Below, piece by piece: positions 9,976-31,889 of a DNA stretch of 32,000 bases. Both the position numbers and the translations under genes were made by a program. The stretch lies in contig JAIPHU010000001.1 in the NCBI GenBank assembly GCA_021735045.1, positions 60,001-92,000 of the forward strand. Reading direction: 5' to 3'. The first letter of the stretch is position 1. Each line of letters starts with the position of its first letter. The notes under the pieces were generated by a model, which worked only from the letters and a program-made list of their open reading frames with translations, was not told where the DNA came from and made no database searches. Source of the stretch: Candidatus Omnitrophota bacterium. Lineage in GTDB: Bacteria > Omnitrophota > Gorgyraeia > Duberdicusellales > 4484-171.

Positions 9976-10011
9976 TATTTTCGTCTGTCGTCTGTCGTCT
10001 TTTGTTGTTTC
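9941..10011 (+). repeat. Tandem heptamers (4x CGAGGGA, then 3x TCGTCTG) forming an imperfect hairpin around the topA stop codon; candidate intrinsic terminator
   Basis: CGAGGGA at 9941, 9948, 9955 and 9962; TCGTCTG/T at 9981, 9988 and 9995. 9946-9964 pairs with 9981-9999 (15 WC pairs, 2 G:U, 2 G:G mismatches). Followed by TTTTGTTGTTT. Confidence 0.6.
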
Positions 10012-13235: not shown

Positions 13236-13236
13236 T

Positions 13237-15042: not shown

Positions 15043-15094
15043 ATATCGACAAAAGTTCTATTGAAAAACGATAAAAGGATAAAATAGTTTCGTT

Positions 15095-15168
15095 ATTGCG
15101 AGGAGCCGAAGGCGACGAAGCAATCTTTAATAAAGACAATAGAGATTGCTTCGGCTTCGCCTCGCAAT
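15095..15168. repeat. GC-rich imperfect palindromic (REP-like) intergenic element
   Basis: ATTGCGAGG (15095-15103) pairs with CCTCGCAAT (15160-15168). GAAGCAATCT (15117-15126) pairs with AGATTGCTTC (15143-15152). The loop is AT-rich. The G+C content is far above the surrounding DNA. Confidence 0.7.
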
Positions 15169-15198
15169 GACATTAAAAAGGATGTAGGGACTAAAGAG

Positions 15199-17277
15199 AT
15201 GCGTGTTATTCAAATTTTACCAAAAATGAAAGCGGGGGGAGTTGAAAGGGGTGTTTTAGATTTGGTTAGATACTTTAAGGCCTCAGATAATTTTCCAAAT
15301 TTTGAAAGTATAGTTATAAGCGCCGGAGGTAATTTATCTTATTTATTAGAAAACTCTAAAGTAAAACATTATCAGTTTTCTGTAGACAAGAAATCTCCTT
15401 TTTCTCTGCTAACAGTGCCTAAAATTTCAAAACTTATTTTAAAAGAAAAGCCAAATATAATGCATGCGCGAAGTCGGGTTCCAGCCTGGATAAGTTTTTT
15501 TGCCACTCGAAACACAGAATGCCATTTTGTAACTACAGCTCATGGAATATATAAAAATAAAATATCTAGTGAAGTGATGGGATGGGGTAAATTTGTAATT
15601 TGTCCTTCAAAAACTGTTGCCCGACAGATGAAGGAAAAGTTTGGGGTTCCAGAGGAAAAGATTATAATTATCCCTCGCTGGGTAGATTTAGACAAGTTCA
15701 GGTTTTTTGATTATCAAAGCCGGATAGATGATAATTTTATAGTAAGTGTGGGAAGAATTTCTCCTACCAAAGGATACCAGTATTTAATTGATGCCTTTAG
15801 AAAAGTAGTAAGGTTTAATCCTTATCTTAAGTTAAAAATAGTTGGATCGGTAGATAAAAATAAATCAAGATATTTGGATTATCTCAAGACTTTAGTATCT
15901 AGATTTTCTTTAAATTATAATGTTGAATTTATTGGTTTTAATCAAGATATTGAAAATATTTTAGCTAAAGCAAAACTATTGGTTGCACCTTCTTTAATTG
16001 AAGAAGCTTTTGGACGAGTGGTTGTTGAAGCTGCTGCTTGCGGAACACCGGTTGTTGCAACTAAGGTAGGAGGGTTTCAGGAGATAATTAATGACAAAAA
16101 AGATGGGTTGTTGGTTCCTCCCGCGGATCCAGATTCATTGTCTGAGGCTATTTTAAGTTTAATTAATGATTCGGAGATGGCAGAAAAACTCGCAGTAAAC
16201 GCAAGAAATAAAGTGGAAACAAAATACACTATGGATAAAATTTTAGATTCTTTAGGAATGGTTTATAAAAAAATAGTAAAAGAAAAGAGGATACTAGTCA
16301 CAAAATTTTCTTCTTTGGGAGATATAATTTTAACCATACCATCTTTAGCTCGTTTACGCCAAGAGTTCCCAGATGCGAAAATATATTTACTTACTTTAAA
16401 AAAATATGCTAACTTTTTTTATGATTGCCCTTATATAGATAAGACTATGGCTTTATCTTCGGACTATAAAAAGATAAAAAGAATTTTTCAAATGAGTAAA
16501 AGGCTAAGAAGATTGTCTTTTGATTATATAATTGATCTTCAAAATAATCGGGTTAGTCAATGGATCAATTTTTTAAGTTTTGCCCGTAAAAGTTTTGGTT
16601 TTAGAAGAAAGTTCGGGTTTTTGCTAAATTATACAACTGACTACAAAAGTGGTGAAAAAATTGGCCCGCTTGAGTCACAAGAAAGGATACTAAAGCTTTT
16701 AGGGATAACTTTTAAGACTAGAAAGTTACTGTTTTGGCAAACCAAGCCGCTTGATCTATCGCATTTTAACCTGGGAGAAGATAAGTTAATTGGAATTAAT
16801 GTTTCTGCGTCAAAAAAATGGAAAACAAAAAACTGGCCCTTAGAAAATATTAATAGTTTTATTAAGTTGTTTGGTAAAAAATATCCAAACTATAAAATTG
16901 TGCTTTTAGGCGATAAGGCTAGTTTGTCCCAGGCTGATATAATAAAGAGTTTTGATAAGAATAAAAAGGTTATCAATCTTTGCGGTAAAACTAAAATCGT
17001 TGAACTCATTGAACTGCTAAAACGGCTAAAGCTTTTTATTACTCCCGATACTGCTACTTTGCATCTAGCTCAGTGCCTAGAGGTTGAAACTATCGGCCTT
17101 TTTGGCCCAACTAATCCTAAGCTGCACAGTGTAGAGTCTTCTACTCTTAAGATTATCGACAAAGGCCTACCTTGCCAATATTGTTATAAAGATAAATGCA
17201 AAACTAATCGATGTATGAAGGCTATCTCGGCAAAAGAAGTGACGCTATTGGTAGGTAGTATTTTAGAAAAAACTTAA
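15199..17277 (+). CDS. Fusion glycosyltransferase: GT4 (N-terminal ~360 aa) + GT9 heptosyltransferase-like (C-terminal ~330 aa)
   Basis: The N-terminal half reads MRVIQILPKMKAGGVERGV ... EEAFGRVVVEAAACGTPVVAT (the GT4 E-x7-E region). The C-terminal half reads RILVTKFSSLGDIILTIPS ... DTATLHLAQ ... GLFGPT (GT9). Confidence 0.8.
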   Translation: MRVIQILPKMKAGGVERGVLDLVRYFKASDNFPNFESIVISAGGNLSYLLENSKVKHYQFSVDKKSPFSLLTVPKISKLILKEKPNIMHARSRVPAWISFFATRNTECHFVTTAHGIYKNKISSEVMGWGKFVICPSKTVARQMKEKFGVPEEKIIIIPRWVDLDKFRFFDYQSRIDDNFIVSVGRISPTKGYQYLIDAFRKVVRFNPYLKLKIVGSVDKNKSRYLDYLKTLVSRFSLNYNVEFIGFNQDIENILAKAKLLVAPSLIEEAFGRVVVEAAACGTPVVATKVGGFQEIINDKKDGLLVPPADPDSLSEAILSLINDSEMAEKLAVNARNKVETKYTMDKILDSLGMVYKKIVKEKRILVTKFSSLGDIILTIPSLARLRQEFPDAKIYLLTLKKYANFFYDCPYIDKTMALSSDYKKIKRIFQMSKRLRRLSFDYIIDLQNNRVSQWINFLSFARKSFGFRRKFGFLLNYTTDYKSGEKIGPLESQERILKLLGITFKTRKLLFWQTKPLDLSHFNLGEDKLIGINVSASKKWKTKNWPLENINSFIKLFGKKYPNYKIVLLGDKASLSQADIIKSFDKNKKVINLCGKTKIVELIELLKRLKLFITPDTATLHLAQCLEVETIGLFGPTNPKLHSVESSTLKIIDKGLPCQYCYKDKCKTNRCMKAISAKEVTLLVGSILEKT

Positions 17278-17300
17278 CCCTTCTTCCCCTGCAGCTCTTT

Positions 17301-17448
17301 GGGGACGGTCCTTACCCTTATAACTCTTTTTAAATTAAGTACTTATGAATTAAAATATTTCAATTATGCTTTCTTTTTCAGTTGTTTAGAGATAATATTT
17401 ATATAAGTTTCTGGCAATCAACAACTTATAATTAGAAGGACCGTCCCC
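17301..17448. repeat. 148-bp MITE-like element bounded by perfect 13-bp inverted repeats GGGGACGGTCCTT / AAGGACCGTCCCC
   Basis: Left repeat at 17301-17313, right repeat at 17436-17448. Both are followed inward by a TTATAA-containing stretch. The interior is very AT-rich. It lies between convergent genes, and the right repeat encodes the last codons of the minus-strand GT9 gene. Confidence 0.4.
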
Positions 17449-18475
17449 GTTTAGTTAAGAGGGCTAGGGTGGTTTTTGCGACTGTTTGGGGGGTAATTTT
17501 AAGCATGCATTGGTGGTTTTTTGGACAGTTTTTTTGATAGCAGGGTACCGGACAAATATCATTTTCAAATAATAGATATCCTTTTGTACGGTTTATAGGT
17601 TTGGTGCAGCTAGGGCTAGTAGGCCCAAATATTGCGATAAATTTTGTACCGACTGCTCCAGCTAGATGGAGTGGGCCGGAGTCTCCGGATATAACTAGAT
17701 CTAGCTGACTGTATAAACAGGCTAGTTGGCGCAAATTAGTCTTTCCGCTTAAATCTATAACTTTTTTACCAAATTGAGTAAAAATAGCGGGAATATTTTT
17801 TTGTTTATTTTTTGAAGTTATAAAAAAAGTTGAATTGGGATATTTGTTTAAAATTTTTTTAATTAGTTTTTGGTAGTTGGATAAGGGCCAATCTTTAGGG
17901 GGCCAGTTACTATGTGGGTTTATGCCAATTAAATAGTTGCCATTTAAGTGATTAGCTTGGGGGAGGATTTTTTCTAAATTTTTTTCTTCTGCTTTTCCTA
18001 GATAAACCTGGCAGTTTTTATTATCGATATTTATTCCTGATATTTTTAAAATATTAAGATAGTAGTCTTGTTTGTGGACAGAATCTTTATTGATTACGGG
18101 TATTTTTTTACTGAGAAGTAGGGATCGTTTTTTATAGTTATAGCCGATTATCTCTTTTGTTTTTGCAAGAAAAACGAGTAAAGTTTTGGTAAAGGAACGA
18201 TGGAGGAGGAAAGCTTTATCAAATTGATAAGTTCTGATTTTTTTTATAAATTTAATTTTAGAAAATATTGTTCTTTCTTCTTTTTTTTCATCTAATTTAA
18301 ATATTTTATCAATATGAGGATTATTTTCTAAAATCGGTGCCGCTTTTCTTGCTACTACAACAGCTAAAAAACTTTTTGGATAAACCTCTTTGATCGCCTT
18401 AAAAGCAGGAGTAGTAAGAATTACATCTCCTAGCCAGTTAGGTTCAACTAGTAGTATTTTTAATTGCTTTTTCAT
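17432..18475 (-). CDS. GT9 family glycosyltransferase (LPS heptosyltransferase-like)
   Basis: MKKQLKILLVEPNWLGDV ... DSGPLHLAGAVG ... IFGPTSP. Start ATG 18475 is preferred over the track start 18523. It still overlaps the upstream GT4 gene by 32 nt. Confidence 0.8.
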   Translation of the reverse strand: MKKQLKILLVEPNWLGDVILTTPAFKAIKEVYPKSFLAVVVARKAAPILENNPHIDKIFKLDEKKEERTIFSKIKFIKKIRTYQFDKAFLLHRSFTKTLLVFLAKTKEIIGYNYKKRSLLLSKKIPVINKDSVHKQDYYLNILKISGINIDNKNCQVYLGKAEEKNLEKILPQANHLNGNYLIGINPHSNWPPKDWPLSNYQKLIKKILNKYPNSTFFITSKNKQKNIPAIFTQFGKKVIDLSGKTNLRQLACLYSQLDLVISGDSGPLHLAGAVGTKFIAIFGPTSPSCTKPINRTKGYLLFENDICPVPCYQKNCPKNHQCMLKITPQTVAKTTLALLTKRGRSF

Positions 18476-19532
18476 AAATTTTAATAAAACTATTAATTTT
18501 TTTGCTAATATCAAACTTATCAATTACTTGTTTGTGAGCATTTATAGATATTTGGCGATACAAAACTTTATCAGTTGTTAGTTTGATAATTGCTTGGCTG
18601 ATACTTTTTGGATTAACTGGTTTTGACTTTAAACCAGTTTTTTCATGATCCACTAATAAATTTAGGCCATCGACTCCAGATACCACAGGCGGTATGCCTA
18701 AGTATTGAGCTTCAACTACCGAAAGGCCCAAAGGTTCTTCTAGTGAAGGAAGGCAGAATATATCTAATGCGTTTAAAAAGGCAGCCAGTGATCTTTGTTT
18801 TAAGAAAATGAGGTGGTTGCTAATGTTTAATTTTTTTGAAATATTTAGTAAGGTTTTGTGATAGTTGCCTTCTCCTAAGATGTAAAATTTTGCTTGGGGG
18901 TATTTTTTTAAAACTTCAGGGATGCTTTTGATTAAATACTGAAAGCCTTTAACTGGTGATAGTCTTCCGGAGCTACCAATTATTGGGTTTCCGGTTAATT
19001 TTAGTGGGTGTGTGTTTCGATTTAAAGCTTTTAAGTCGATTCCAGAAAGAATTGTTTTTACTTTTTTTGGATTTGCTCCAAAGAATTTTATCAAGTCATC
19101 TTTTACAAGCGGGGTAATTGCGATTGAATATTTACCCTGGGCTTTTATTATTTTTCGTATTTTTCTGGCTTTATTTTTCTGATAAAAACCGTGGAAATTA
19201 GCTACATGCGGTATTTTTGTGAAAAAGCTATTTAATTGGCAAGCAACCTGGGTAACTCGAGTATGTGAATGGAGTAGATCATAGGGGAAATATTTATGTA
19301 TCTTCGATAGTTGAACTGCAGTAGCAACAATTTTTGGGGAGAGTTCGTTTTTAGTTTTAATCGGAATTTTATAAATTTCTAGGCCTAATTCTTTAAAGCG
19401 ATATTCTTGATTGCCACCGGAGGAACAAACTGCAACTTTAATGCCTTTTTCTAATAAGTATTTAGCTAAGGTATAGGTATAGGTGGTTATTCCACCGATA
19501 TTAAGATGAGGCAGTACTTGTAAAACTCGCAT
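18444..19532 (-). CDS. GT4 family glycosyltransferase
   Basis: 362 aa. MRVLQVLPHLNIGGITTY ... EEPLGLSVVEAQYLGIPPVVS (E-x7-E). Confidence 0.85.
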   Translation of the reverse strand: MRVLQVLPHLNIGGITTYTYTLAKYLLEKGIKVAVCSSGGNQEYRFKELGLEIYKIPIKTKNELSPKIVATAVQLSKIHKYFPYDLLHSHTRVTQVACQLNSFFTKIPHVANFHGFYQKNKARKIRKIIKAQGKYSIAITPLVKDDLIKFFGANPKKVKTILSGIDLKALNRNTHPLKLTGNPIIGSSGRLSPVKGFQYLIKSIPEVLKKYPQAKFYILGEGNYHKTLLNISKKLNISNHLIFLKQRSLAAFLNALDIFCLPSLEEPLGLSVVEAQYLGIPPVVSGVDGLNLLVDHEKTGLKSKPVNPKSISQAIIKLTTDKVLYRQISINAHKQVIDKFDISKKINSFIKIYEKAIKNTTS

Positions 19533-19629
19533 TTAATTAAGATATCATAGTAACAAGAAGATGAAAAGAAAAAAACTTGCCCTCAAGCCGGAGAGAAGTT
19601 ATATTATTAATCTAAGAAAAAACAAGTTT

Positions 19630-20562
19630 ATGAAAAAGATAAAAAAAATTATAGTAAATTTTCCCACTAATATTGGCGATACAATTTTAGCTTTACCGGC
19701 CTTAGACCGAATCAAAGCTAATTTCCCCCAAAGCAAGATTACAGCTATTGTTAGCCCGAAAACAAAAGATTTCCTTTTAAAAAATAATTTTATCGATATT
19801 GTAGTGTTATTTGATAAAAGATGGAAGGTCTTTAGGAAAATAAAATTTTGCTTGAATTTACGAAAAAAATTTGAGGTAATAGTTGATTTTAAAAATTCGA
19901 TGTTACCTGTTTTTTTAGGAATAAAGAGACACACCCCCTTCATACGCTTTTTTCCAAAAAATCTTCATATTAAAGATAAATATCTAAAAATTATAAAAAA
20001 GATTGCTCCGGAACCGGCTCAAGAAAAAAGCCAATTCATAATTTCAGAAGAAAAAAAGAAGAAATGGGATTTATCTAGCCAAAAAAAATATGTATTTTTT
20101 GGCTGTTTTTCTCGTTCTCATCGTAAGGATTACAATAAAAATAATTTAATTATTACGATTAATAAGTTACAAGTTGAATATAATTGTGTTTTGCTGGGTT
20201 TGCCGCAGGATAGACAAAAAATTAACCAGAATCAGTTAGGGGCAAGGGTAGTTAATTTGGTGGGTAAAACTGATATTGCTGATATTTATTTTCTTCTGGC
20301 TAGTTATGCGAAAGTTGTAGTTGCAGTCGATTCTAGCATTATGCATCTATCAAGTTACTTAAATGTACCGGTTGTTAGTTTATTTGGGCCAACTTTGCCA
20401 GAATGTTCGGGCCCTTGGTCAAAAAATTCAGTAATTTTACAAAATACAGATTTAAATTGTGTTCCTTGTGAAGGCCAAAAAGAATGTAAGGATATAAAAT
20501 GCATGGATATTGAACCAAAAAGAATAATCAGCGAAGTTAAGAAGATATTAAACAATGGATAA
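19630..20562 (+). CDS. GT9 family glycosyltransferase (LPS heptosyltransferase-like)
   Basis: MKKIKKIIVNFPTNIGDT ... DSSIMHLSS ... LFGPT. ATG 19630 is preferred because it gives the usual GT9 N-terminus and a possible TTGCCC-17-TATATT promoter lies upstream. The track start is 19561. Confidence 0.75.
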   Translation: MKKIKKIIVNFPTNIGDTILALPALDRIKANFPQSKITAIVSPKTKDFLLKNNFIDIVVLFDKRWKVFRKIKFCLNLRKKFEVIVDFKNSMLPVFLGIKRHTPFIRFFPKNLHIKDKYLKIIKKIAPEPAQEKSQFIISEEKKKKWDLSSQKKYVFFGCFSRSHRKDYNKNNLIITINKLQVEYNCVLLGLPQDRQKINQNQLGARVVNLVGKTDIADIYFLLASYAKVVVAVDSSIMHLSSYLNVPVVSLFGPTLPECSGPWSKNSVILQNTDLNCVPCEGQKECKDIKCMDIEPKRIISEVKKILNNG

Positions 20563-21577
20563 GCCAAAAAAAATTTTAGTTATCAGGACTGACCGGCTCG
20601 GGGATGTGATCCTTTCGACCCCGGTAATAAAAAATTTGCGTAAAAATTATCCTGACAGTTATATTGCTTTTACTTGCCGTCCTTATACAAAAGATATTCT
20701 TGAAGGTAATCCTTACTTAGATGAACTATTGATCTATGATAAATATGGCTATCATAAGAATTTCTTAGCGACTTTAAAGTTTGCTCTTTATTTAAGAAAG
20801 AAAAAGTTTGATTTGGCTTTAGTTCTGCATCCTACCAACAGGGCTCATATCTTGGCTTTTTTTGCCGGAATTGCGAAAAGAGTTGGTTGGAATAAGAAGC
20901 TAAGTTTTCTGTTAACAGATAAGTTGGCTCACACCAAAGACCAAGGGAAAAAACATGAACGGGAATACAATCTAGATCTTTTGCGTTATTTAGATATCTC
21001 CGCTGAAGATAAGGAAATTTATATTCCGGTACAAGAAAATGTTCAACAAAAAGTGGATCAGATTTTAGCCAAAGAAGGCATAGAGAGTAAAGACAAATTG
21101 ATAGTTATTCATCCTTGCGCAAGCTGTCCTTCGAAGCGATGGCCGCAAAGTAAGTTTATCGAATTAGTTAAGATGCTCAAAGCCGAAGAAGATATAAAAA
21201 TTGCAGTTATAAGTTCAGCTGATCAAAAAGAATTTGGTAAGGGGATATCGAAAATAGAAGGGGTAATTGATCTATGTGGGGCTTTGTCAATCTCAGAAAC
21301 TATTGCCTTAATTAATCGCGTGCGATTATTTATTTCTTGTGATTCCGGGCCAGTCCATATTGCCGCGGGTTTGAATAAACCAGTTATCTCAATCTTTGGT
21401 AGGTCTCAAGCCGGCCTTTCTCCAAAACGATGGGCACCAACTGGTAAAAACTCTTATTTTTTTCATAAAGATGTTGGTTGCAAAATTTGTCTTGCTCATA
21501 ATTGCCAGAAGGGGTTTAAGTGCCTTCAGGCAATCAAACCAGCAGAGGTGTACACTCTCGCCAAAAAACTCATCTAA
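20555..21577 (+). CDS. GT9 family glycosyltransferase (WaaF/WaaC-like heptosyltransferase)
   Basis: 340 aa. KKILVIRTDRLGDV ... DSGPVHIAAGL ... IFGRS. 8-nt overlap with the upstream gene. Confidence 0.8.
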   Translation: MDKPKKILVIRTDRLGDVILSTPVIKNLRKNYPDSYIAFTCRPYTKDILEGNPYLDELLIYDKYGYHKNFLATLKFALYLRKKKFDLALVLHPTNRAHILAFFAGIAKRVGWNKKLSFLLTDKLAHTKDQGKKHEREYNLDLLRYLDISAEDKEIYIPVQENVQQKVDQILAKEGIESKDKLIVIHPCASCPSKRWPQSKFIELVKMLKAEEDIKIAVISSADQKEFGKGISKIEGVIDLCGALSISETIALINRVRLFISCDSGPVHIAAGLNKPVISIFGRSQAGLSPKRWAPTGKNSYFFHKDVGCKICLAHNCQKGFKCLQAIKPAEVYTLAKKLI

Positions 21578-21815: not shown

Positions 21816-21895
21816 TTGAAAATAGAAAATTAACATTTCTATTTAGTAATAAGTATTAACATTTCTATATTGTAATAACAGATCTAAATATGGGG

Positions 21896-21923
21896 TTGAC
21901 ATCGTTTGTCTGTATAGTATAAT
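21896..21923 (+). promoter_or_regulatory. Consensus sigma70 promoter TTGACA-16 nt-TATAAT upstream of rex
   Basis: TTGACA at 21896-21901 and TATAAT at 21918-21923, 30 nt upstream of the rex ATG. Confidence 0.6.
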
Positions 21924-21953
21924 TATTAATCGTTACTAATTTCACGATTTGCT

Positions 21954-22577
21954 ATGAAATCAATTTCACGTAAAACTATTGACAGAGCTCTTTTGTATAT
22001 CAGAGCTTTAGAAAATTTGCTTAAAGAAAAGAGAGATAAAATTTCTTCTTTGGAATTAGCCGATATTACCGGCAGCTCTGACGTCCAAATCCGAAAAGAT
22101 ATATCTTTTTTTGGTAAAGTAGGAACACCTCGAATAGGTTATGAAACAAAAAAATTAAAAGATATTCTAGAAAATTTTATTCTCCAAAACAATGTTGTTC
22201 ATATCGCCTTATTTGGTGTAGGTAATTTAGGAAAAGCAATATTAAAATATCCGGGCTTTCAAACTGATAAAATTAAATTAGTTGCTGCTTTTGATAAAGC
22301 AAAAAGCAAGTTATTAAAAGAAATTAATGGAATTAAAATTTATCCGGTTGAGAGGTCTGTTGAATTAATTAAAAAAGTTCATGCTGAAATTGGAATCATT
22401 GCAGTTCCTCCCAGAAGCAGCCAAGAGGTTGCGGATATTATGGTTAAAGCGGGTTTAAAAGGGATAATAAATTTTGCACCAAGTTGCATCTCTGTTCCTA
22501 AAAACACATTTGTTAAGAATATAGATTTTTCAATAGAAATATTATCGATTTTTTCTCATACTCAATTTCAGAAATAA
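21954..22577 (+). CDS. rex: Redox-sensing transcriptional repressor Rex
   Basis: 207 aa. Winged-helix region SSLELADITGSSDVQIRKDISFFG, Rossmann LFGVGNLGKA, and C-terminal INFAP. Confidence 0.9.
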   Translation: MKSISRKTIDRALLYIRALENLLKEKRDKISSLELADITGSSDVQIRKDISFFGKVGTPRIGYETKKLKDILENFILQNNVVHIALFGVGNLGKAILKYPGFQTDKIKLVAAFDKAKSKLLKEINGIKIYPVERSVELIKKVHAEIGIIAVPPRSSQEVADIMVKAGLKGIINFAPSCISVPKNTFVKNIDFSIEILSIFSHTQFQK

Positions 22578-22986: not shown

Positions 22987-23466
22987 ATGGATAAAATGTG
23001 TTCAGTATCAAAAACCATAACTCAGGGAAAAAAGAAAATCCAGGTTTGTGATGCAACTCGTAGCCAACTTATTCCGATATTACGGCAAATTCAGGAAAAA
23101 AAAGGTTATATATCTGATAAGAACATGCAAGAAGTTGCGTCTTCTTTGGGGATACATCCAGTTGAAGTTTATTCTGTTGTTACCTTTTATTCTTTTTTAA
23201 CTACTGAAAAAAAAGGAAAACATATTATCAGAATAAGTAATTGTATATCCTCGGTTATGGCAGGCAGTAAAAGAATTATTAAAATTTTTGAAAAAGAGTT
23301 AGGAATAAAGGTGGGAGAAACTACTAAAGATAAAAAGCTTAGCTTAGAAGAGACTAGTTGCATTGGGATGTGTGATCAAGCCCCAGCTGCTTTAATTGAC
23401 GGAAATTTAATCGGCAAGCTAACGGCAAAAAAAGTAAAAAATATAGTTAAAGAATTAAAAAAGTAA
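22987..23466 (+). CDS. NuoE/HydC-like thioredoxin-fold [2Fe-2S] subunit, divergent (module 1)
   Basis: 159 aa, colinear with NuoE/HydC (EVYSVVTFYSFL, SCIGMCDQAPA). The first cluster motif reads C-ISSV-M instead of C-x4-C. Confidence 0.8.
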   Translation: MDKMCSVSKTITQGKKKIQVCDATRSQLIPILRQIQEKKGYISDKNMQEVASSLGIHPVEVYSVVTFYSFLTTEKKGKHIIRISNCISSVMAGSKRIIKIFEKELGIKVGETTKDKKLSLEETSCIGMCDQAPAALIDGNLIGKLTAKKVKNIVKELKK

Positions 23467-23481
23467 AATAGGGGAGAAAAT

Positions 23482-24663
23482 ATGACAAAAACGCGTAAAG
23501 GACCAATTATATTTAGTAAAAGCAAGCCTTTTTCTGGATTAAAGAATGCGATAGATATAGGCAGAAGTGAAGTTTTAGATTATGTACGTAAATCTAATAT
23601 TAAAGGTAGGGGCGGAGCAGGTTTTCCCACTGGTGTTAAATGGAATCTTACCGCTACTGCTTCTGATAAGAAAAAATATGTTATTTGTAATGCCGATGAG
23701 GGTGAACCAGGAACTTTTAAAGATAGAGTCCTTTTAGATGAATATGCAAAACTTGTTTTTGAGGGAATGGTTATTTGTGCGTTTGCTGTAGGTGCTGATG
23801 AAGGCATCTTGTATCTACGCGGTGAATATATATCATTTCTTCCTGAGCTGGAAAAAACCTTAAATCAGATGAGAAAGAATAATTTATTAGGTAAAAATAT
23901 TTTAGGCAAAAAAGGCTTTAATTTCGATATAAAGATAAGATTAGGTGTCGGGGCCTATGTTTGCGGTGAAGAAACTTCTCTTATTGAATCATTAGAAGGA
24001 TATAGAGGTGAACCCCGCAACAAACCTCCTTTCCCTACCAATACTGGATTTGCAGGTCATCCTACAGTTATAAATAATGTTGAAACTTTTGCAGCAATAG
24101 CTCATATAATTTTAAAAGGGCCAGATTGGTTTAGATCTATTGGAACTGAAAAATCTTCTGGGTCTAAACTAATAAGTGTATCTGGTGATTGTAAAAAACC
24201 AGGTGTTTATGAAATTCCTTTTGGAACCACTATTAAAAAAATTTTAAAACTAACAGAAGCTAAAGACACTAAAGCTGTTGAAGTAGGGGGTGCATCAGGA
24301 GTTTGTGTGGCTAAATCAGAATTTGGCAGAAAGATTGCTTACGAAGATTTATCTACTGGTGGTTCTATTATAATTTTTAGCAAAAAAAGGGATTTATTGG
24401 AGGTAGCTAAAAATTTTCTTGATTTTTTTGCTGAAGAATCTTGCGGCCAATGCACACCTTGCCGAGAAGGTATTCCGGTGTTACAAGAAAAATTAGATAA
24501 ATTACAACAAAAAAAAGCAACAAAGGGTGACCTTGAAGATATTTTTTCTTTAGCTGAGACTATGTACTTAGCTTCAAAGTGTGGCTTAGGCCAAACTGCT
24601 GCTTCAGCTTTTGTTTCGATATTAAGTAATTTTAAAAAAGATTATGTTTTGGTTAAATCATAA
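23482..24663 (+). CDS. NuoF-like NAD(P)H/FMN-binding subunit, minimal form (module 1)
   Basis: 393 aa. GRGGAGFPTGVKW, ICNADEGEPGTFKDR, GAYVCGEETSLIESLEG, ESCGQCTPCREG...KCGLGQTA. It lacks the N-terminal 2Fe-2S and C-terminal 2x[4Fe-4S] domains seen in the paralog at 28243. Confidence 0.85.
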   Translation: MTKTRKGPIIFSKSKPFSGLKNAIDIGRSEVLDYVRKSNIKGRGGAGFPTGVKWNLTATASDKKKYVICNADEGEPGTFKDRVLLDEYAKLVFEGMVICAFAVGADEGILYLRGEYISFLPELEKTLNQMRKNNLLGKNILGKKGFNFDIKIRLGVGAYVCGEETSLIESLEGYRGEPRNKPPFPTNTGFAGHPTVINNVETFAAIAHIILKGPDWFRSIGTEKSSGSKLISVSGDCKKPGVYEIPFGTTIKKILKLTEAKDTKAVEVGGASGVCVAKSEFGRKIAYEDLSTGGSIIIFSKKRDLLEVAKNFLDFFAEESCGQCTPCREGIPVLQEKLDKLQQKKATKGDLEDIFSLAETMYLASKCGLGQTAASAFVSILSNFKKDYVLVKS

Positions 24664-24678
24664 GGAGGAATCTTATTT

Positions 24679-26595
24679 ATGGCTAAAGAACCTTTTACAA
24701 AACCTACTTCGCGTGCTCCGGTAAGTCAAAGGTCGCAAACTGTAGGTAAAATTAACAAAAAAGCTTTAGGGGGAAAAGTAACTGCAGTAATTGATGGTAT
24801 TGAAATTAAAGTTCCTATGGGAACAACTATTTTAGAAGCAGCTAAAAAAATAGGTATAAAAATACCGACTCTTTGCCATCATGAGGATTTATGTTTAGCT
24901 GGGGTATGCCGTGTTTGCTTGGTTGAAGTGGAGGGGCAAAAAACCTTACAGGCATCTTGTTCTTATCCGATTATTCATAATGTAGTAGTTAAAACTTATT
25001 CATCACGGGTAAGGCGAGCTAGAAAAAATATTATTCATCTTCTTTTACGCAATCATTATGGTGAATGTTATTCTTGTGAAAAAAATAATAATTGTGAACT
25101 GCAAGATTTAGCAGAAGAATATGGTGTTACCGAATATAAGTTTGGCCATATTCAGGAGAGGCGTTTTCAGCCTGATCTTTCGAGTTCTGCTATAACTAAA
25201 GATAATGATAAATGTATAAATTGTAAAAGATGTATCAGGACTTGCATTGATTTGCAAGAAGTTGGAGTTTATGAATCAGTTAATCGCGGGCCAGAAACAA
25301 AAGTTTCGACTTATTTAAATAAGCCTTATTCAGATGTAATTTGTATAAATTGCGGACAATGCGTAAATAGATGCCCTACAGGAGCCCTAAAGGAGAAAAA
25401 TGATGTTGCAGGTGTATGGAAAGCTATAGATAATCCTAATAAGCATGTTGTGATTCAAACTGCACCAGCACCACGGGCAGCAATTGGAGAAGAGTTTGGT
25501 CTGGCTCCAGGCACCTCAGTTACCAAACAGTTAAATACAGCTATAAAAAGAGTTGGGTTCGATAAGGTTTTTGATACTAACTCGTCAGCAGATTTAACTA
25601 TTATGGAAGAAGGTACAGAACTATTGCTTAGGCTTAAGAAATATTTAAAAGAGCAGGATAAAAGCGTTAAATTACCTCAGTTTACTTCTTGTTCGCCGGG
25701 TTGGATCAAATATTTAGAAGATTTTTATCCGGATAAAGTAGATTATTTATCAACTTGTAAAAGCCCCCAACAGATGTTTGGGGCATTAATCAAGACATAT
25801 TATGCAAAAAAAGCAAAAATTGATCCTAAAAACATTGTTAGTGTATCATTGATGCCGTGTGTTGCTAAAAAATATGAAGCTAAAAGACCAGAGATGAATG
25901 ATTCAGGTTATCAGGATGTTGATTATGTTTTAACCACCAGAGAACTTGCGAGCATGGTCAAGGAATGCGGATTAGATTTACCTCGGTTACCGGAATCTGA
26001 CTTTGATAAGCCTCTAGCTATAGGAAGCGGTGCAGGATTAATTTTTGGTGCAACCGGTGGTGTTATGGAAGCAGCTTTACGAACTGCTTATGAATTAGTT
26101 ACCGGTGATGAAGCTCCTTTTAAAAAATTAAGAGTTACTCCAGTAAGAGGTATGGAAGGTATCCGTGATGCTCAAATTCCGATAAAAAAAGCTAAAAAAG
26201 AGTGGAAATTTCTTGAGGGTGCCAGCTTAAAGGTTATGGTTGCTCATGGTACAGCTAATGCTAAAAAAGTAATGGAGATGCTTGAGTTGGGTAAGTTAGA
26301 TGATTATCATTTTGTTGAAATTATGGCTTGCCCGGGTGGCTGTTTAGGTGGAGGGGGTCAACCTATCCCTACTACCGACGCAATAAGGAAACAACGGGCA
26401 AAAGCAATATATGCTGAGGACGAACAACTCACTATTAGAAAATCTCATCAGAATCCTGTAGTGGAGACTCTTTATAAAGAGTTTTTAACTGATGGGCCAT
26501 GTGGGCACAAGAGCCACAAATTTTTACATACTCATTATTCTCCGGGTAGTAGTTGGATAGGTAAAAAACCGAGAGTAAAAGTTAGGAAAAAATAA
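24679..26595 (+). CDS. [FeFe]-hydrogenase catalytic-subunit paralog (M3-type domain order) with TSCSP variant of H-cluster motif L1 (module 1)
   Basis: 638 aa. N-terminal 2Fe-2S domain, H-x3-C-x2-C-x5-C cluster, and 2x C-x2-C-x2-C-x3-CP. H-domain motifs are FTSCSPGW, MPCVAKKYE and EIMACPGGCLGGGGQP. Confidence 0.9.
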   Translation: MAKEPFTKPTSRAPVSQRSQTVGKINKKALGGKVTAVIDGIEIKVPMGTTILEAAKKIGIKIPTLCHHEDLCLAGVCRVCLVEVEGQKTLQASCSYPIIHNVVVKTYSSRVRRARKNIIHLLLRNHYGECYSCEKNNNCELQDLAEEYGVTEYKFGHIQERRFQPDLSSSAITKDNDKCINCKRCIRTCIDLQEVGVYESVNRGPETKVSTYLNKPYSDVICINCGQCVNRCPTGALKEKNDVAGVWKAIDNPNKHVVIQTAPAPRAAIGEEFGLAPGTSVTKQLNTAIKRVGFDKVFDTNSSADLTIMEEGTELLLRLKKYLKEQDKSVKLPQFTSCSPGWIKYLEDFYPDKVDYLSTCKSPQQMFGALIKTYYAKKAKIDPKNIVSVSLMPCVAKKYEAKRPEMNDSGYQDVDYVLTTRELASMVKECGLDLPRLPESDFDKPLAIGSGAGLIFGATGGVMEAALRTAYELVTGDEAPFKKLRVTPVRGMEGIRDAQIPIKKAKKEWKFLEGASLKVMVAHGTANAKKVMEMLELGKLDDYHFVEIMACPGGCLGGGGQPIPTTDAIRKQRAKAIYAEDEQLTIRKSHQNPVVETLYKEFLTDGPCGHKSHKFLHTHYSPGSSWIGKKPRVKVRKK

Positions 26596-26596
26596 C

Positions 26597-27346
26597 GTGA
26601 ATAGTAAAAAATATAAGAAAAAAGATAAGTTAGATATTTCTAATCAAGAACTTGAGTCTTCTGATAAACAGTATCTTGATTTAGTTGGTTTTGTCTCGCA
26701 TGAGCTAAAAGGAATTCTTTCTTCGGTTGTTTTAAATACCTATAATTTGCAAAATGGCCTATTGGGAGATCTAAATCCAGCTCAGAAAAAAACATTAAAA
26801 TCTATAAGTAGAAATTTAGATTATTTAACTACAACTGTTCGTAATTTTTTGAATTTTAGCCGGATTGAAAAACAAGAGTTATCTTTGAATAAATTTCGTT
26901 GTCTATTCAAAGAAGATATAGTTGATGTTTCCATTGATTCATATTCACAAGCAGCTGCAGATAAAGATATAAAAATTATAAATAAAGCAATCTCTTCGCT
27001 AGAGGTAGAAGTAGATTCAGGATTGTTACAGATAGCATTAAATAATCTTTTATCTAATGCGATAAAATATGGCAAAGAAGGCCGGGAGGTTGTAATTTCA
27101 ACTGAATTAGATAACAATAAAGTTATAGTTGAAATATATAATCAGGGTGAATCTATAGATAAGACTGATATTGATAAGTTATTTAAAAAGTTTAGCCGTC
27201 TGCATTATCGCGGTACCGAAAAGATAAAAGGAACCGGAATTGGCCTTTATATTACCAAAGAGATTATCAACCAGCATCATGGAAATATCTGGGTTGAACC
27301 AAAGCCAGAAGGAAATAGTTTTAAGTTCAGTTTAGAGGTGGTATAA
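26597..27346 (+). CDS. Histidine kinase consisting only of DHp + HATPase domains (no sensor or TM domain)
   Basis: 249 aa. H-box FVSHELKG at about residue 36, N-box LLSNAIKYG, G2 GTGIGLYITKEI. GTG start lies 1 nt after the upstream stop codon. Confidence 0.85.
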   Translation: MNSKKYKKKDKLDISNQELESSDKQYLDLVGFVSHELKGILSSVVLNTYNLQNGLLGDLNPAQKKTLKSISRNLDYLTTTVRNFLNFSRIEKQELSLNKFRCLFKEDIVDVSIDSYSQAAADKDIKIINKAISSLEVEVDSGLLQIALNNLLSNAIKYGKEGREVVISTELDNNKVIVEIYNQGESIDKTDIDKLFKKFSRLHYRGTEKIKGTGIGLYITKEIINQHHGNIWVEPKPEGNSFKFSLEVV

Positions 27347-27371: not shown

Positions 27372-28241
27372 ATGAAAAATAAAATCTTAATTATTGATGA
27401 TGATGCTGATTTTGTAGAAGCAATCTCTTTACTATTGGAAGCAAACGGTTATAAAACATTGCAAGCTTATAATGGTAAAGAAGGTTTTGCTCAAGCAAAA
27501 GAGCAGGTGCCTGATTTGATAATGTTGGATATGAAGATGGCATATCAAACTGAAGGTGCTGAAACTGCTAAAGCAATGTCAAAAGATGCAGAAATAAAGG
27601 ATATCCCAGTCATTTTAGCAACTGGAATCGGTAAAGAGTTGACTAAAAAGTTAAAAGAGATCCTTAGGAATGAAGCAATGTCAGTTAAAACTGTTATTGA
27701 AAAGCCAATAGAAGCAAAAGAGCTTCTTAAAATAATAAAGAATTATATAGGTGAAAGTGGCGGCAAAGAACATAGAGAATTAATCAAACAAATTACCAGT
27801 TTTGCTAATAAATGGAAAGGCAAGAAAGGTAATTTAGTTATGATTCTTCATGAAATACAAAATTATTATGGTTATGTACCCAGGGGTATTTCGTTTCAAT
27901 TATCTCGGTTATTAGGTATTCCTTTAGCAAGAATTTATGAAGTTATAACCTTTTATAATTTTTTCAAGCTTTCGCCTCCTGGCAAACATGTGATTTCGGT
28001 TTGTATGGGGACAGCTTGTTATCTAAAGGGTGCTGCGGAGTTAGTTGATAAGATTAAAAGTCTTCTTAAAATAGAAGAAGGCCAAACTACAGAAGACGGT
28101 TTGTTTCATCTTCAAGTTGTTAGATGCCTAGGTTGTTGTGGTCTTGCTCCTGTAGTTATGGTTGATCAAAAAATATATTCAAAAGTTGTGCCAGATAGCA
28201 TCGAAGGTATTGTTTCTAGATACAGGCAGGATAAAAGTTAA
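27372..28241 (+). CDS. hydC: Fusion: response-regulator receiver domain + NuoE/HydC-like [2Fe-2S] subunit (module 2)
   Basis: 289 aa. Residues 1-~120 form a REC domain (DDD 9-11, D53 in IMLDMKM, T84, K111). Residues ~130-289 are NuoE-like with an intact C-x4-C (VCMGTAC) and CLGCCGLAP. Confidence 0.85.
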   Translation: MKNKILIIDDDADFVEAISLLLEANGYKTLQAYNGKEGFAQAKEQVPDLIMLDMKMAYQTEGAETAKAMSKDAEIKDIPVILATGIGKELTKKLKEILRNEAMSVKTVIEKPIEAKELLKIIKNYIGESGGKEHRELIKQITSFANKWKGKKGNLVMILHEIQNYYGYVPRGISFQLSRLLGIPLARIYEVITFYNFFKLSPPGKHVISVCMGTACYLKGAAELVDKIKSLLKIEEGQTTEDGLFHLQVVRCLGCCGLAPVVMVDQKIYSKVVPDSIEGIVSRYRQDKS

Positions 28242-28242
28242 T

Positions 28243-30045
28243 ATGGATAAATTAAATCAAAAAAAAATAGAAGAACTTAGAGAAAAACTTCAAAAGCAAA
28301 GACCGGGTTTTGTTAAGGTTGGAGTAAGTTCTTGTGGAATAGCAGCTGGAGCAAATGATGTATTAGATCGTTTTATAGCTTTAAAAAAGAAAAATAATTT
28401 AGATATTGAAATTAGAAAGTGTGGTTGTGCTGGTATGTGTTATGCAGAGCCATTGGTGGAAGTTTCTTTAGACGGTAGAGATTCTGTAACTTATAAAGAA
28501 GTTACACCTGAACTAGTAGAAAAAATAGTAAAAAATCATATTATCTCCGGAAAAATCCAAGAGGATTATGTTTATAAAACCGATACTGAAAAAAAACAGT
28601 TTAAGTTAATTCTTTCCAATTGTGGAAAAGTTAACCCAGAAAGTATCAATGATTATATTTCTTTGGGTGGTTACCGAGCTGTAGAAAAAGTTCTTATTAA
28701 AGAAAATAGGCAAGAGGTAATTGATCAGTTGAAAATAAGTGGTTTGAGAGGAAGAGGCGGGGGAGGTTTTCCCACCTGGTTAAAATGGAATTTTGCTAAA
28801 GGAGTTAACGCAGATAAAAAGTATATAATCTGTAATGGCGACGAGGGTGATCCCGGGGCTTATATGGATAGGAGCCTTCTAGAGGGTAATCCTCATGCAA
28901 TTATTGAGGGGATGATTATTGCTGGTTTTGCTGTAGGGGCAGATGAAGGGTTTTTTTATATTCGAGCCGAATATCCTCTTGCAATTTCTCGAGTTCAAAA
29001 AGCAATTGATGCTGCTATTGATTATGGATTATTGGGAGAAAATATTTTAGATACTGGGTTTAACTTTAATTTACAAATTCGTCTTGGTGCCGGTGCGTTT
29101 GTTTGTGGAGAAGAAACTGCTTTAATTGCATCTATTGAAGGTAAGCGTGGCTATCCTTCTCCGCGTCCTCCCTATCCTTCTGTAAAAGGCCTTTGGTCGA
29201 AACCAACGGTGATCAACAACGTTGAAACTTTAGCTAATATTCCAATTATATTTGATAAAGGAGGAGATTGGTTTTCAAAAATTGGAAGTCAAAACTCTAA
29301 AGGTACCAAGGTATTTGCTCTCACCGGGAAAGTTAAAAATTCTGGTTTAGTTGAAGTTCCGATGGGCACGACTTTAGGTGAAATTGTTTATGGTATTGGT
29401 GGCGGTGTATCTGGCGGCAAAGTGAAGGCGATTCAGACTGGTGGGCCTTCCGGAGGAGTTATTCCTAAAGAATACTTTGATACTCCTGTAAATTATGAAA
29501 GTTTGCAAAAATTAGGTTCCATAATGGGTTCCGGCGGAATGATTGTTATGGATGAAAAGGATTGTATGGTTGATATCGCTAAATTTTATATGAAATTTTG
29601 TGTAGAAGAGGCTTGTGGTAAATGTTCTCCTGGCCGCATTGGAACTTATCAGATGTTACAATATCTTAAAAAGATATCCAAGGGTAAAGCAAACATGAAT
29701 GATTTACAGTTATTAGAGGATATTGCTTATGCGGTTCAAAGGACCGCTTTGTGTGGGTTAGGCCAAACTGCACCTAATCCCGTAGTATCAACTTTAAAGT
29801 ATTTTCGCGATGAATATATTGCGCATATTAAAGAACAAAGATGTCCAGCGGGAAAATGTAAAGATTTAGCAAAATATAAGATAGTTGAAGACAAGTGTAA
29901 AAAATGTGGTGCTTGTATTAAAGTTTGTCCAGTAGAGGCGATTTCAGGAGATAAAGATAAGGGCTACAAGATAGATCAAAAAAAGTGTATCCAGTGTGGT
30001 AAATGTTTCCAAGTTTGTAGTTTTGATGCAATAAAAAAAGGTTAA
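28243..30045 (+). CDS. hydB: HydB/NuoF-like subunit, full-length bifurcating-type architecture (module 2)
   Basis: 600 aa from ATG 28243. N-terminal thioredoxin-like 2Fe-2S (SSCGIAAG...CGCAGMC), GRGGGGFPTWLKW, ICNGDEGDPGAYMDR, GAFVCGEETALIASIEG, and C-terminal 2x[4Fe-4S] (CKKCGACIKVCP, CIQCGKCFQVC). Confidence 0.9.
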   Translation: MDKLNQKKIEELREKLQKQRPGFVKVGVSSCGIAAGANDVLDRFIALKKKNNLDIEIRKCGCAGMCYAEPLVEVSLDGRDSVTYKEVTPELVEKIVKNHIISGKIQEDYVYKTDTEKKQFKLILSNCGKVNPESINDYISLGGYRAVEKVLIKENRQEVIDQLKISGLRGRGGGGFPTWLKWNFAKGVNADKKYIICNGDEGDPGAYMDRSLLEGNPHAIIEGMIIAGFAVGADEGFFYIRAEYPLAISRVQKAIDAAIDYGLLGENILDTGFNFNLQIRLGAGAFVCGEETALIASIEGKRGYPSPRPPYPSVKGLWSKPTVINNVETLANIPIIFDKGGDWFSKIGSQNSKGTKVFALTGKVKNSGLVEVPMGTTLGEIVYGIGGGVSGGKVKAIQTGGPSGGVIPKEYFDTPVNYESLQKLGSIMGSGGMIVMDEKDCMVDIAKFYMKFCVEEACGKCSPGRIGTYQMLQYLKKISKGKANMNDLQLLEDIAYAVQRTALCGLGQTAPNPVVSTLKYFRDEYIAHIKEQRCPAGKCKDLAKYKIVEDKCKKCGACIKVCPVEAISGDKDKGYKIDQKKCIQCGKCFQVCSFDAIKKG

Positions 30046-30047
30046 TT

Positions 30048-31793
30048 ATGCCCAAAGCAATAATAAATAACAAAGAAGTCATAGTTGAGGAAGGTACAAC
30101 AATTCTTGATGCTGCCAAAAAGATAAATATAGATATTCCTACTTTGTGTAAGCATCCTGACTTAGATGCCAGTGCTGCTTGCGGTATTTGCGTAGTTAAG
30201 GTCAAAGGGTCAAAAAAGATGCTTCGGGCTTGCTGTACTGCGTTAGAAGAAGGTATGAATATAATCACTCATGACAATGAACTTCAGAAGATAAGAAGGA
30301 CGGTTATCGAATTAATTTTATCAAATCATCCTAATGATTGCCTTCAATGTGCGCGCAACAATAACTGTGAGCTACAAAAACTAGCTGCTGATTTTGGAAT
30401 AAGGGAATTTCCTTTTCCTCAATTTTTAAGAGATGTCCCTGAAGATGAATCTACTAAAACCATTGATCTTGTTCCTTCAAAGTGTATTCTTTGTGGCAGG
30501 TGTGTACAGGTGTGCCAGGATTTACAAGATGTTTGGGCACTTTCTTTTATTGAAAGAGGACACAAAACTAGGATTTCTGCTGCCGGAGATATTAATTTGT
30601 CAGAAAGTCCTTGTATTCGTTGTGGGCAGTGTTCGGCCCATTGTCCTACCGGTGCTATTGCCGAGCATGATCAAACCGAAGATGTTTGGAGGGCTTTATA
30701 TAACGAGAAAAAATATTGTATGGTTCAAATTGCTCCTGCTGTAAGAGTTGCGATCGGAGAAGCATTTAATCTTCCTATTGGCGCGAATTTAACTGGGAAA
30801 ATTTATTCGGCTCTCCGGCGTCTAGGTTTTAATGCAGTATTTGATACTTCTTTTGGCGCAGATGTTACTGTTATGGAGGAAGCTACTGAGTTTGTGGAAC
30901 GTTTTGTTCATAAAAAGGGTAAATTACCTTTGATAACTACTTGCTGCCCCTCTTGGGTTGATTTTATGGAAAAATTTTATCCGGATATGATTGATAATTT
31001 TTCTTCCTCAAAATCTCCTCATGAGATGTTAGGGGTATTAGCAAAAACTTATTTTGCCCAAAAAAATAAAATAGATCCAAAAGATATGTATATGGTATCA
31101 ATCATGCCTTGTACATCCAAAAAATATGAAATAAGCCGCAGCAATCAAATGTATGCCTCAGGATATCAAGATGTTGATACATCATTAACTACTCGTGAAT
31201 TAGCAAGAATGATAAAACAGGCCGGAATTGATTTTGCTAATTTAGAAGAAGAGAAGGCTGATAATATTTTAGGTGATTATACCGGGGCGGGAGTAATTTT
31301 TGGCGCAACCGGTGGGGTTATGGAAGCAGCTTTACGAACTGCTTATTTTTTAATTACTGGTAAAAACTTTAAAGAGGTAAAATATAATGATGTGCGTGGC
31401 CTTGAGGGTGTAAAAGAAACAGTTGTAAATATTGCGGGAGAAAAAGTGAGGATAGCTATAGCTCATGGTATGGGAAATGTTGAAGCTGTTTTAAATAAAA
31501 TCCGTCAAGCTTTGGCTGAAGGCAAAAAGCCTCCTTATGATTTTATTGAAGTTATGGCTTGTCCGGGTGGCTGTATCGGTGGGGGCGGCCAACCTTATGG
31601 AGTTACGGATCAGCTTCGTATTGCCAGGGCATCTGGCCTGTATAGTGATGATGATAAAAAAGAGATTCATTTTTCTCATGATAATCCATACATAAAACAA
31701 TTATATGATAGCTTTTTAGGTAAACCGTCAGGAGAAAAAGCTAAAAAATTATTGCATACGCGCTATGTGCCGCGTCCGCTTTACAAAAAATAG
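30048..31793 (+). CDS. hydA: [FeFe]-hydrogenase catalytic subunit HydA, canonical H-cluster motifs (module 2)
   Basis: 581 aa in M3 domain order. TTCCPSW, MPCTSKKYE, EVMACPGGCIGGGGQP. Confidence 0.9.
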   Translation: MPKAIINNKEVIVEEGTTILDAAKKINIDIPTLCKHPDLDASAACGICVVKVKGSKKMLRACCTALEEGMNIITHDNELQKIRRTVIELILSNHPNDCLQCARNNNCELQKLAADFGIREFPFPQFLRDVPEDESTKTIDLVPSKCILCGRCVQVCQDLQDVWALSFIERGHKTRISAAGDINLSESPCIRCGQCSAHCPTGAIAEHDQTEDVWRALYNEKKYCMVQIAPAVRVAIGEAFNLPIGANLTGKIYSALRRLGFNAVFDTSFGADVTVMEEATEFVERFVHKKGKLPLITTCCPSWVDFMEKFYPDMIDNFSSSKSPHEMLGVLAKTYFAQKNKIDPKDMYMVSIMPCTSKKYEISRSNQMYASGYQDVDTSLTTRELARMIKQAGIDFANLEEEKADNILGDYTGAGVIFGATGGVMEAALRTAYFLITGKNFKEVKYNDVRGLEGVKETVVNIAGEKVRIAIAHGMGNVEAVLNKIRQALAEGKKPPYDFIEVMACPGGCIGGGGQPYGVTDQLRIARASGLYSDDDKKEIHFSHDNPYIKQLYDSFLGKPSGEKAKKLLHTRYVPRPLYKK

Positions 31794-31848: not shown

Positions 31849-31873
31849 CCAACCTTCTTAGGTTGGTTTTTTT
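31849..31873 (+). terminator. Rho-independent terminator
   Basis: CCAACC (31849-31854), loop TTCTTA, GGTTGG (31861-31866), followed by T7. Confidence 0.7.
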
Positions 31874-31889
31874 ATTTTTAGGAGGTTTT

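Follow-up and report, generated by a model that had tools for sequence, protein, structure and literature searches.

Background

The histidine kinase HoxJ carries an N-terminal PAS domain by which it binds its sensor hydrogenase, and it controls a DNA-binding response regulator of the NtrC type. The [NiFe] regulatory hydrogenases HoxBC/HupUV, which are partnered by HoxJ/HupT, are placed in group 2b, designated "histidine kinase-linked" (PMC5037454). Kinase genes located beside genes for [FeFe] hydrogenases and for HydB and HydC subunits have also been annotated already, namely as HydDB group C1, "histidine kinase-linked (putative)", and in hyd operons of Firmicutes (Cthe_0339; Thermoanaerobacter) (PMC5037454, PMC8542988, PMC3608648, PMC3990059). 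Here we analyse a histidine kinase gene at positions 26597-27346 of a 32,000-nucleotide stretch of DNA, referred to as the window, from Candidatus Omnitrophota bacterium (assembly GCA_021735045.1, contig JAIPHU010000001.1, positions 60,001 to 92,000 of the forward strand). The gene lies in an operon that encodes two [FeFe]-hydrogenase modules, HydC'B'A' (module 1) and HydBA (module 2), and two receiver (REC) domains, one standing alone (REC1) and the other fused to HydC. Comparison with relatives identifies its product as a derived, N-terminally truncated form of a sensor kinase of about 610 amino acids (aa) that is conserved in the Rex-linked hydABC operons of Omnitrophota, Planctomycetota, Auribacterota and neighbouring phyla.

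Results

The window encodes a kinase core without sensor

The open reading frame (ORF) of the kinase starts with GTG, separated by a single base, C, from the TAA stop codon of hydA' (26593-26595); AGGA is found 9 nt upstream of the GTG. Pfam scan of the protein returned HisKA (PF00512; residues 28-92, E 2.3e-8) and HATPase_c (PF02518; residues 140-247, E 5.3e-22), and no further domain at E<=0.01, PAS, GAF and HAMP included. Hydropathy scan revealed no transmembrane (TM) segment. The AlphaFold2 model (pLDDT 83.8) shows a helical hairpin (residues 16-52 and 61-91) and an alpha/beta ATP-binding (CA) domain as its only folded units, and residues 1-13 form a disordered Lys-rich tail. For this model, Foldseek ranks the cytoplasmic core of HK853 from Thermotoga highest (E 1e-18, TM-score about 0.7). 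The phospho-acceptor is His35, located in FVSHELKG. The original prediction, which had described a complete phosphotransfer core with an H-box histidine at about residue 36, without TM, PAS, GAF or HAMP segment and with a GTG start 1 nt behind the hydA' stop, is in agreement with these data except for the one-residue shift. Its statement that the kinase is embedded in a hydrogenase operon together with two receiver domains holds as well.

GTG is the sole start codon upstream of the H-box, and in L013 (Ca. Oleincola secundus), whose kinase is 89% identical (loci of relatives are cited by L numbers), the identical stop-C-start junction is followed by ATG at the same place, which supports the start call. 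An upstream extension of the ORF or a misplaced start was ruled out on these grounds. A leftover of the sensor region, or a sensor gene split off in the vicinity, was also considered. When the window and the loci with truncated kinases were searched by tblastn with the sensor region of the long kinase of L025, the best E value was 2.8 and no sensor-coding remnant emerged, and for these stretches the explanation was dropped. The window kinase is truly truncated, and an assembly artefact is not the cause.

Sensor-bearing orthologues occupy the same place in the operon

We scanned one genome per GTDB species with the kinase alignment and obtained 80 loci, spread over Omnitrophota, Planctomycetota, Auribacterota, Spirochaetota, Fibrobacterota and others. 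Genes hydB/hydA directly follow the kinase in 72 of the 80 loci, rex precedes it in 53, and a REC-hydC fusion adjoins it in 33. After ORF extension, the kinases of 70 loci are at least 540 aa long and belong to the ~610-aa form. Architecture of the family was determined by Pfam scan of ten representatives, eight of them long forms: sCache_3_3 or Cache_3-Cache_2 (E 1e-31 to 1e-35) is placed between two TM helices and followed by HAMP, HisKA and HATPase_c.

The window ORF begins approximately at the junction of HAMP and the dimerisation and histidine phosphotransfer (DHp) hairpin of the long forms, and its His35 corresponds to His397 of L025. It has no equivalent of long-form residues ~1-362, which hold the two TM helices with the Cache domain of the periplasm, and HAMP. 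An intermediate stage is represented by the 361-aa kinase of L007, in which a linker and two TM helices are present and the Cache domain is missing. In the neighbour-joining (NJ) tree of kinase cores, truncated forms are placed among long forms linked to module 1, and the clade containing the window kinase has bootstrap support of 100%. A sister clade is formed by dCache kinases (L008, L061 and others) without hydrogenase linkage.

It had been proposed that an input-less kinase must receive its signal from a partner protein, with the neighbouring hydrogenase-like complex as the foremost candidate. However, orthologues at the same position own sCache, two TM helices and HAMP, and in seven loci (L021, L025, L026, L027, L029, L030, L031) the full Cache-HAMP kinase occurs together with the two-module operon. 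Because these seven relatives have both, module 1 is no substitute for the sensor. The original prediction had itself named, in advance, a longer sensor-bearing ORF in relatives as evidence against it; such ORFs are present in orthologues, although the truncation in the window remains real.

Short kinases of this family are also encoded next to hydABC clusters that contain no paralogous module, which speaks against the neighbouring module as kinase input. L009 (9143-15043) encodes a 270-aa kinase with one TM helix, and L093 (5792-12735) a 278-aa soluble kinase, both directly 5' of hydB. These two kinases are independent of the truncated group to which the window kinase belongs. HydB of L093 is in addition fused to a GltD-like pyridine-nucleotide oxidoreductase (1061 aa).

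H, N, F and G2 boxes are preserved under purifying selection

We examined residue conservation over 86 sequences of the kinase family. His35 and Glu36, the H-box histidine and its acidic neighbour, are invariant in all 86 members. The same is true for the N box (N150/N154), the F box (F196/F199) and the G2 box (G212-x-G214-x-G216). The G1 box of the window kinase reads N182-Q-G-E-S and not DxGxG, and the family consensus is N-D-G-x-P; asparagine replaces the canonical aspartate in 85 of the 86 members, long forms included. By analogy with other GHKL ATPases, a defective ATP site was considered. This idea was dropped, since the change is family-wide and the active E. coli kinase CusS has a G1 box of the same N-x-G-x-P type.

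The position four residues behind the phospho-acceptor (His+4) is occupied by Gly39 in the window kinase (H-box HELKG) and by glycine, not threonine or asparagine, in 85 of the 86 family members. According to Willett & Kirby 2012 (PMC3510030), HisKA kinases need an acidic residue at His+1 to act as kinases and threonine or asparagine at His+4 to act as phosphatases. Because the acidic residue is kept and His+4 is glycine, this rule predicts that the family is kinase-competent and phosphatase-poor. The HELKG motif thus suggests monofunctional kinases without phosphatase activity.

The ratio of nonsynonymous to synonymous substitution rates (dN/dS) is 0.03-0.09 across truncated kinase genes, and 0.105 for one pair of long genes. 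The truncated gene is hence under strong purifying selection, and a pseudogene was ruled out by these values together with the intact motifs. It is reasonable to regard the gene product as a predicted functional class-I (HisKA-type) core composed of DHp hairpin and CA fold.

One receiver is fused to HydC, the other encoded beside hydC'

REC1 and the HydC-fused receiver share 33% identity, and residues Asp8-10, Asp52 and Lys106 of REC1 can be read off its sequence. Among receivers of REC-HydC proteins, K111 does not vary, and conservation of D9, D11 and D53 reaches at least 90%. The fusion is widespread: receiver and HydC domains are both present in all of the best-scoring 120 REC-HydC homologue clusters among the matches listed. 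With REC1 encoded directly 5' of hydC', this pair corresponds to a REC-HydC fusion split in two, and the receivers may therefore be expected to act on HydC-containing complexes. Neither receiver bears a DNA-binding domain detectable by Pfam, and HydC is the only domain on the output side. Among the scanned ORFs in the rest of the window, there is no DNA-binding (NtrC-type) response regulator, no second kinase and no other two-component gene. The REC-HydC receiver is the likely phospho-acceptor of the kinase, judging from these sequence features.

Public annotations name REC-HydC homologues only "NAD(P)H-dependent oxidoreductase subunit E", and the genome's own call of the REC-hydC gene (187 aa) leaves out the receiver.

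Module 1 resembles an enzyme

In the original prediction, module 1 was considered hydrogenase-like and a possible sensor. Several observations point in another direction. HydA' scores 820.9 bits against the cut-off of 765 of NCBIfam NF040763, "NADH-dependent [FeFe] hydrogenase, group A6", and its best match in PDB is the catalytic HydA1 of Acetobacterium woodii (7q4v, E 4.5e-179). It is 44% identical to HydA of module 2, which also exceeds the cut-off. The L1 motif of HydA', near residue 337, is TSCSP instead of TSCCP, and motifs L2 and L3 are intact. Serine here replaces the second cysteine, which we take to be the one usually described as a ligand of [4Fe-4S]H (CpI numbering). TSCSP has been described for hydrogenases of Melainabacteria. 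As a mark of sensory hydrogenases it was ruled out, since catalytic A. woodii HydA1 carries the same motif. HydA' therefore looks catalytic rather than sensory in its sequence.

Compared with HydB, HydB' is devoid of both the N-terminal extension and the 2x[4Fe-4S] domain at the C-terminus. In a passage of PMC13556243 that cites Losey 2020, beta subunits of non-bifurcating NADH-dependent hydrogenases are characterised as shorter and as having fewer Fe-S clusters than those of bifurcating enzymes. HydB' resembles, as far as domain content goes, the partner subunit of such non-bifurcating hydrogenases. The simplest reading of both modules is that of two putative catalytic enzymes, NADH-only HydA'B'C' and bifurcating HydABC.

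Junction of hydA' and the kinase gene is lineage-specific

The kinase start close behind hydA' had been taken to imply coupled translation and stoichiometric co-production. The same synteny is found in L002 and L014-L016 (kinases 78-93% identical to that of the window) and in L006 and L011 (55-58%). In all six loci, a gene for a CMD/AhpD-like protein of 113-115 aa intervenes between hydA' and the kinase gene, and the kinase start overlaps the stop of this CMD gene. CMD is absent only in the window and in L013, both of which display the stop-C-start junction. Since CMD was lost in these two, coupling of the kinase to hydA' is secondary and lineage-specific. Tight junctions are moreover a general trait of this compact operon, because spacings of 1-2 nt likewise occur between REC-hydC and hydB and between hydB and hydA.

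The CMD/AhpD-like protein contains a CPVC motif and is encoded at this place, between hydA' and the kinase gene, in nearly all module-1 loci (L002, positions 9661-10008; L006, L007, L011, L014-L016, L025-L031).

Organization of the operon and its surroundings

The operon comprises nine closely packed genes, rex through hydA, between one promoter and one terminator (Table 1). The candidate Rex operator, AATCGTTACTAATTTCACGATT, differs from TTGTKAANNNNTTMACAA by 3 mismatches and is not significant alone. Search with a 6-nt spacer gave nothing useful, and search with the correct 4-nt spacer gave only this 3-mismatch site. The Rex-box-like motif is, however, kept at the same position in L002, L014, L015, L025, L026 and L029 (kinases 53-93% identical to that of the window), and this conservation makes the site credible. 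It probably marks autoregulation of the entire nine-gene operon by Rex. Two direct repeats of 23 bp, TTAACATTTCTAT(T/A)T(A/T)GTAATAA, lie shortly before the -35 element, at 21830-21852 and 21856-21878; they are absent in the relatives examined.

Table 1. Features of the rex-hydA operon, in window coordinates
Feature	Position	Strand	Remarks
Sigma-70-type promoter, TTGACA-16-TATAAT	21896..21923	+	12/12 match; -35/-10 kept upstream of rex in relatives
Candidate Rex operator, Rex-box-like imperfect palindrome AATCGTTACTAATTTCACGATT	21928..21949	+	between -10 element and rex ATG
Rex, NADH/NAD+-sensing transcriptional repressor	21954..22577	+	NCBIfam NF003995 E 1.9e-58, above cut-off; Pfam domains
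REC1, stand-alone receiver without output domain, 123 aa	22598..22969	+	Response_reg E 4.2e-19
HydC', NuoE-like [2Fe-2S] subunit, module 1	22987..23466	+	2Fe-2S_thioredx E 7e-46
HydB', short NuoF-like subunit, 393 aa, module 1	23482..24663	+	Pfam: Complex1_51K and NADH_4Fe-4S only
HydA', [FeFe]-hydrogenase catalytic subunit paralogue, module 1	24679..26595	+	L1 motif TSCSP; NCBIfam A6 820.9 bits
HisKA/HATPase_c histidine kinase core, N-terminally truncated	26597..27346	+	249 aa, His35 phospho-acceptor
REC-HydC fusion, receiver 1-125 and NuoE-like [2Fe-2S] domain 144-284	27372..28241	+	Response_reg E 2.3e-16; 2Fe-2S_thioredx E 5e-47
HydB, full-length NuoF-like subunit, C-terminal 2x[4Fe-4S], module 2	28243..30045	+	ATG 1 nt past REC-hydC stop
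HydA, catalytic [FeFe]-hydrogenase subunit, module 2	30048..31793	+	L1 motif TTCCP; above NCBIfam A6 cut-off
Terminator-like hairpin and T-run 3' of hydA	31849..31876	+	

Directly upstream of the operon (10930-21577) lies a large cluster for lipid A and lipopolysaccharide core, encoding Kdo transferase, LpxK, several GT9 heptosyltransferases and GT4 enzymes, and a lipid A acyltransferase that has an ELM1-like domain as fusion partner. This neighbourhood is kept in relatives L002 and L006. Near the beginning of the window, a gene for a T2SSE/PilT-like secretion ATPase (612-1658) separates an aconitase-family (leuC-like) gene from the leuD-like and leuB-like genes and so unusually interrupts this cluster.

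Discussion

A possible route from kinase to hydrogenase

With moderate confidence, we lean towards a scheme in which the truncated kinase core has the receivers of its own operon as targets, the output falls on the hydrogenase, and the input is constitutive or cytoplasmic. The kinase would dimerise via its DHp hairpin and autophosphorylate His35, from which the phosphoryl group would pass to REC1 and to the receiver fused to HydC. Such a phosphorelay would act post-translationally on the hydrogenase complexes; this is suggested by the fact that neither receiver is DNA-binding and that transcription is apparently handled by Rex. Because periplasmic sensor and HAMP are lost, the kinase is probably constitutive or set by the cytoplasmic state, for example by ATP/ADP. 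Receiver phosphorylation could be balanced by autodephosphorylation of the receivers, since with glycine at His+4 phosphatase activity is probably absent, and the stand-alone receiver possibly serves as a phosphate sink.

Several points weigh against this scheme. We infer phosphotransfer to REC1 and REC-HydC from adjacency and conserved residues alone, and constitutive activity is an assumption drawn from the usual in vitro behaviour of truncated kinase cores. The G1 box of the window kinase (NQGES) is non-canonical, yet active CusS has the N-x-G-x-P type. Strong purifying selection on an input-less kinase is slightly odd, and an unseen input could account for it. Finally, all truncated Omnitrophota forms are united in one clade with bootstrap support of only 55% in the NJ tree, so that one or two events of sensor loss have to be reckoned with.

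As a tentative extension, which we regard as possible but short of probable, the kinase and the two output-less receivers might form a phosphorelay with the hydrogenases, and not transcription, as its direct target, in which phosphorylation of REC-HydC and REC1/HydC' switches or balances electron flow between bifurcating HydABC and NADH-only HydA'B'C'. The truncated kinase would then read the cytoplasmic state, possibly while docking on the hydrogenase.

Other sources of the input

The input may alternatively have moved to another cytoplasmic route, either to the CMD/AhpD-like CxxC protein or to the redox/NADH state of HydC/HydB, which would gate access of the receiver to an unregulated kinase. 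In L002, L014, L015, L016, L006 and L011, translation of the kinase is coupled to that of the CPVC-bearing CMD, which accompanies long kinases as well, and the receiver forms one polypeptide with a redox subunit. CMD is nevertheless missing from the window and L013 and cannot be the input here, and we hold this alternative to be unlikely.

Quite improbable, in our view, is control of the kinase core by contact with HydA'B'C' acting as H2 or redox sensor, by analogy with [NiFe] HoxBC and HoxJ. Soluble truncated kinases of the Omnitrophota clade all occur in module-1 loci, short kinases recur beside hydABC clusters, and strong purifying selection suggests that the truncated kinase is still used; its start abuts hydA' both in the window and in L013. 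On the other hand, sister genomes have CMD and not hydA' before the kinase, seven relatives pair module 1 with a full Cache-HAMP kinase, and the short kinases of L009 and L093 are found without the paralogous module. The proposed sensor itself does not look like one: HydA' has complete H-cluster motifs, a score above the group A6 cut-off and TSCSP in common with A. woodii HydA1, and HydB' is like its counterparts in non-bifurcating catalytic enzymes. The kinase has no PAS or other docking domain.

That the gene is a decaying remnant without signalling role, Rex alone regulating the hydrogenases, would fit the loss of the entire input region and, in the lineage of the window, also of CMD, but is extremely improbable given dN/dS of 0.03-0.09 over several truncated lineages, intact frames, and conservation of all catalytic motifs and receiver acceptor residues.

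Significance

On its own, a sensor-less kinase core is an ordinary evolutionary truncation, and its value is that of a pointer. It points to a conserved two-component system within hydABC operons of several poorly studied anaerobic phyla, comprising a Cache-HAMP kinase, REC-HydC and a second, stand-alone receiver. Limited literature searches, which are no proof of absence, turned up no description of this system, no paper on the ~610-aa Rex-hyd TM-sCache-TM-HAMP kinase family, and no description of a receiver-HydC/NuoE fusion or of a kinase acting on HydABC. The link between receiver and HydC is a more novel lead than the truncated kinase. If receivers do modulate the enzyme directly, this would represent a new control layer acting on flavin-based electron bifurcation and on both the production and the consumption of H2. 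Two-component phosphorylation would then control an electron-bifurcating [FeFe]-hydrogenase post-translationally, for which the same limited searches gave no described case. The naturally truncated soluble kinases of this lineage would, besides, be convenient for examining the idea in vitro.

Comparison with known systems

With HoxJ/HupT, the window kinase has in common that a soluble histidine kinase is encoded together with a hydrogenase; those systems embody the idea that a hydrogenase may serve a two-component system as its input device. Unlike in those systems, there is neither a PAS domain nor a DNA-binding regulator, the hydrogenases are of the [FeFe] HydABC type, and the paralogue looks catalytic from its sequence. 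Without PAS domain and NtrC-type partner, and encoded with [FeFe] and not [NiFe] hydrogenases, the window kinase is not of the HoxJ/HupT type. Adjacency of kinase and [FeFe] hydrogenase is shared with HydDB group C1, whereas HydA' and HydA are assigned to group A (NCBIfam A6) and not to group C.

The core of the long Rex-hyd kinases (L025; L026, Ca. Gygaella obscura; L040, Ca. Velamenicoccus archaeovorus) is 45-59% identical to the window kinase. They share with it the position in the operon, 3' of rex or CMD and 5' of REC-hydC or hydB, the H-box and the sequence of the specificity region.

At the level of architecture, the same DHp hairpin and CA domain are found in HK853cp of Thermotoga maritima, WalK/VicK and CusS, and the window kinase has the length of the crystallised core. 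These kinases are its best matches in sequence and structure, and it presumably works in the manner of HK853cp. Its G1 box is of the CusS type. HK853 has Thr264 at His+4, which is needed for phosphatase activity (PMC3510030), whereas the window kinase has glycine. HK853 and the others are sensor kinases whose cores were made by laboratory truncation; in the window, by contrast, the core is a natural gene product.

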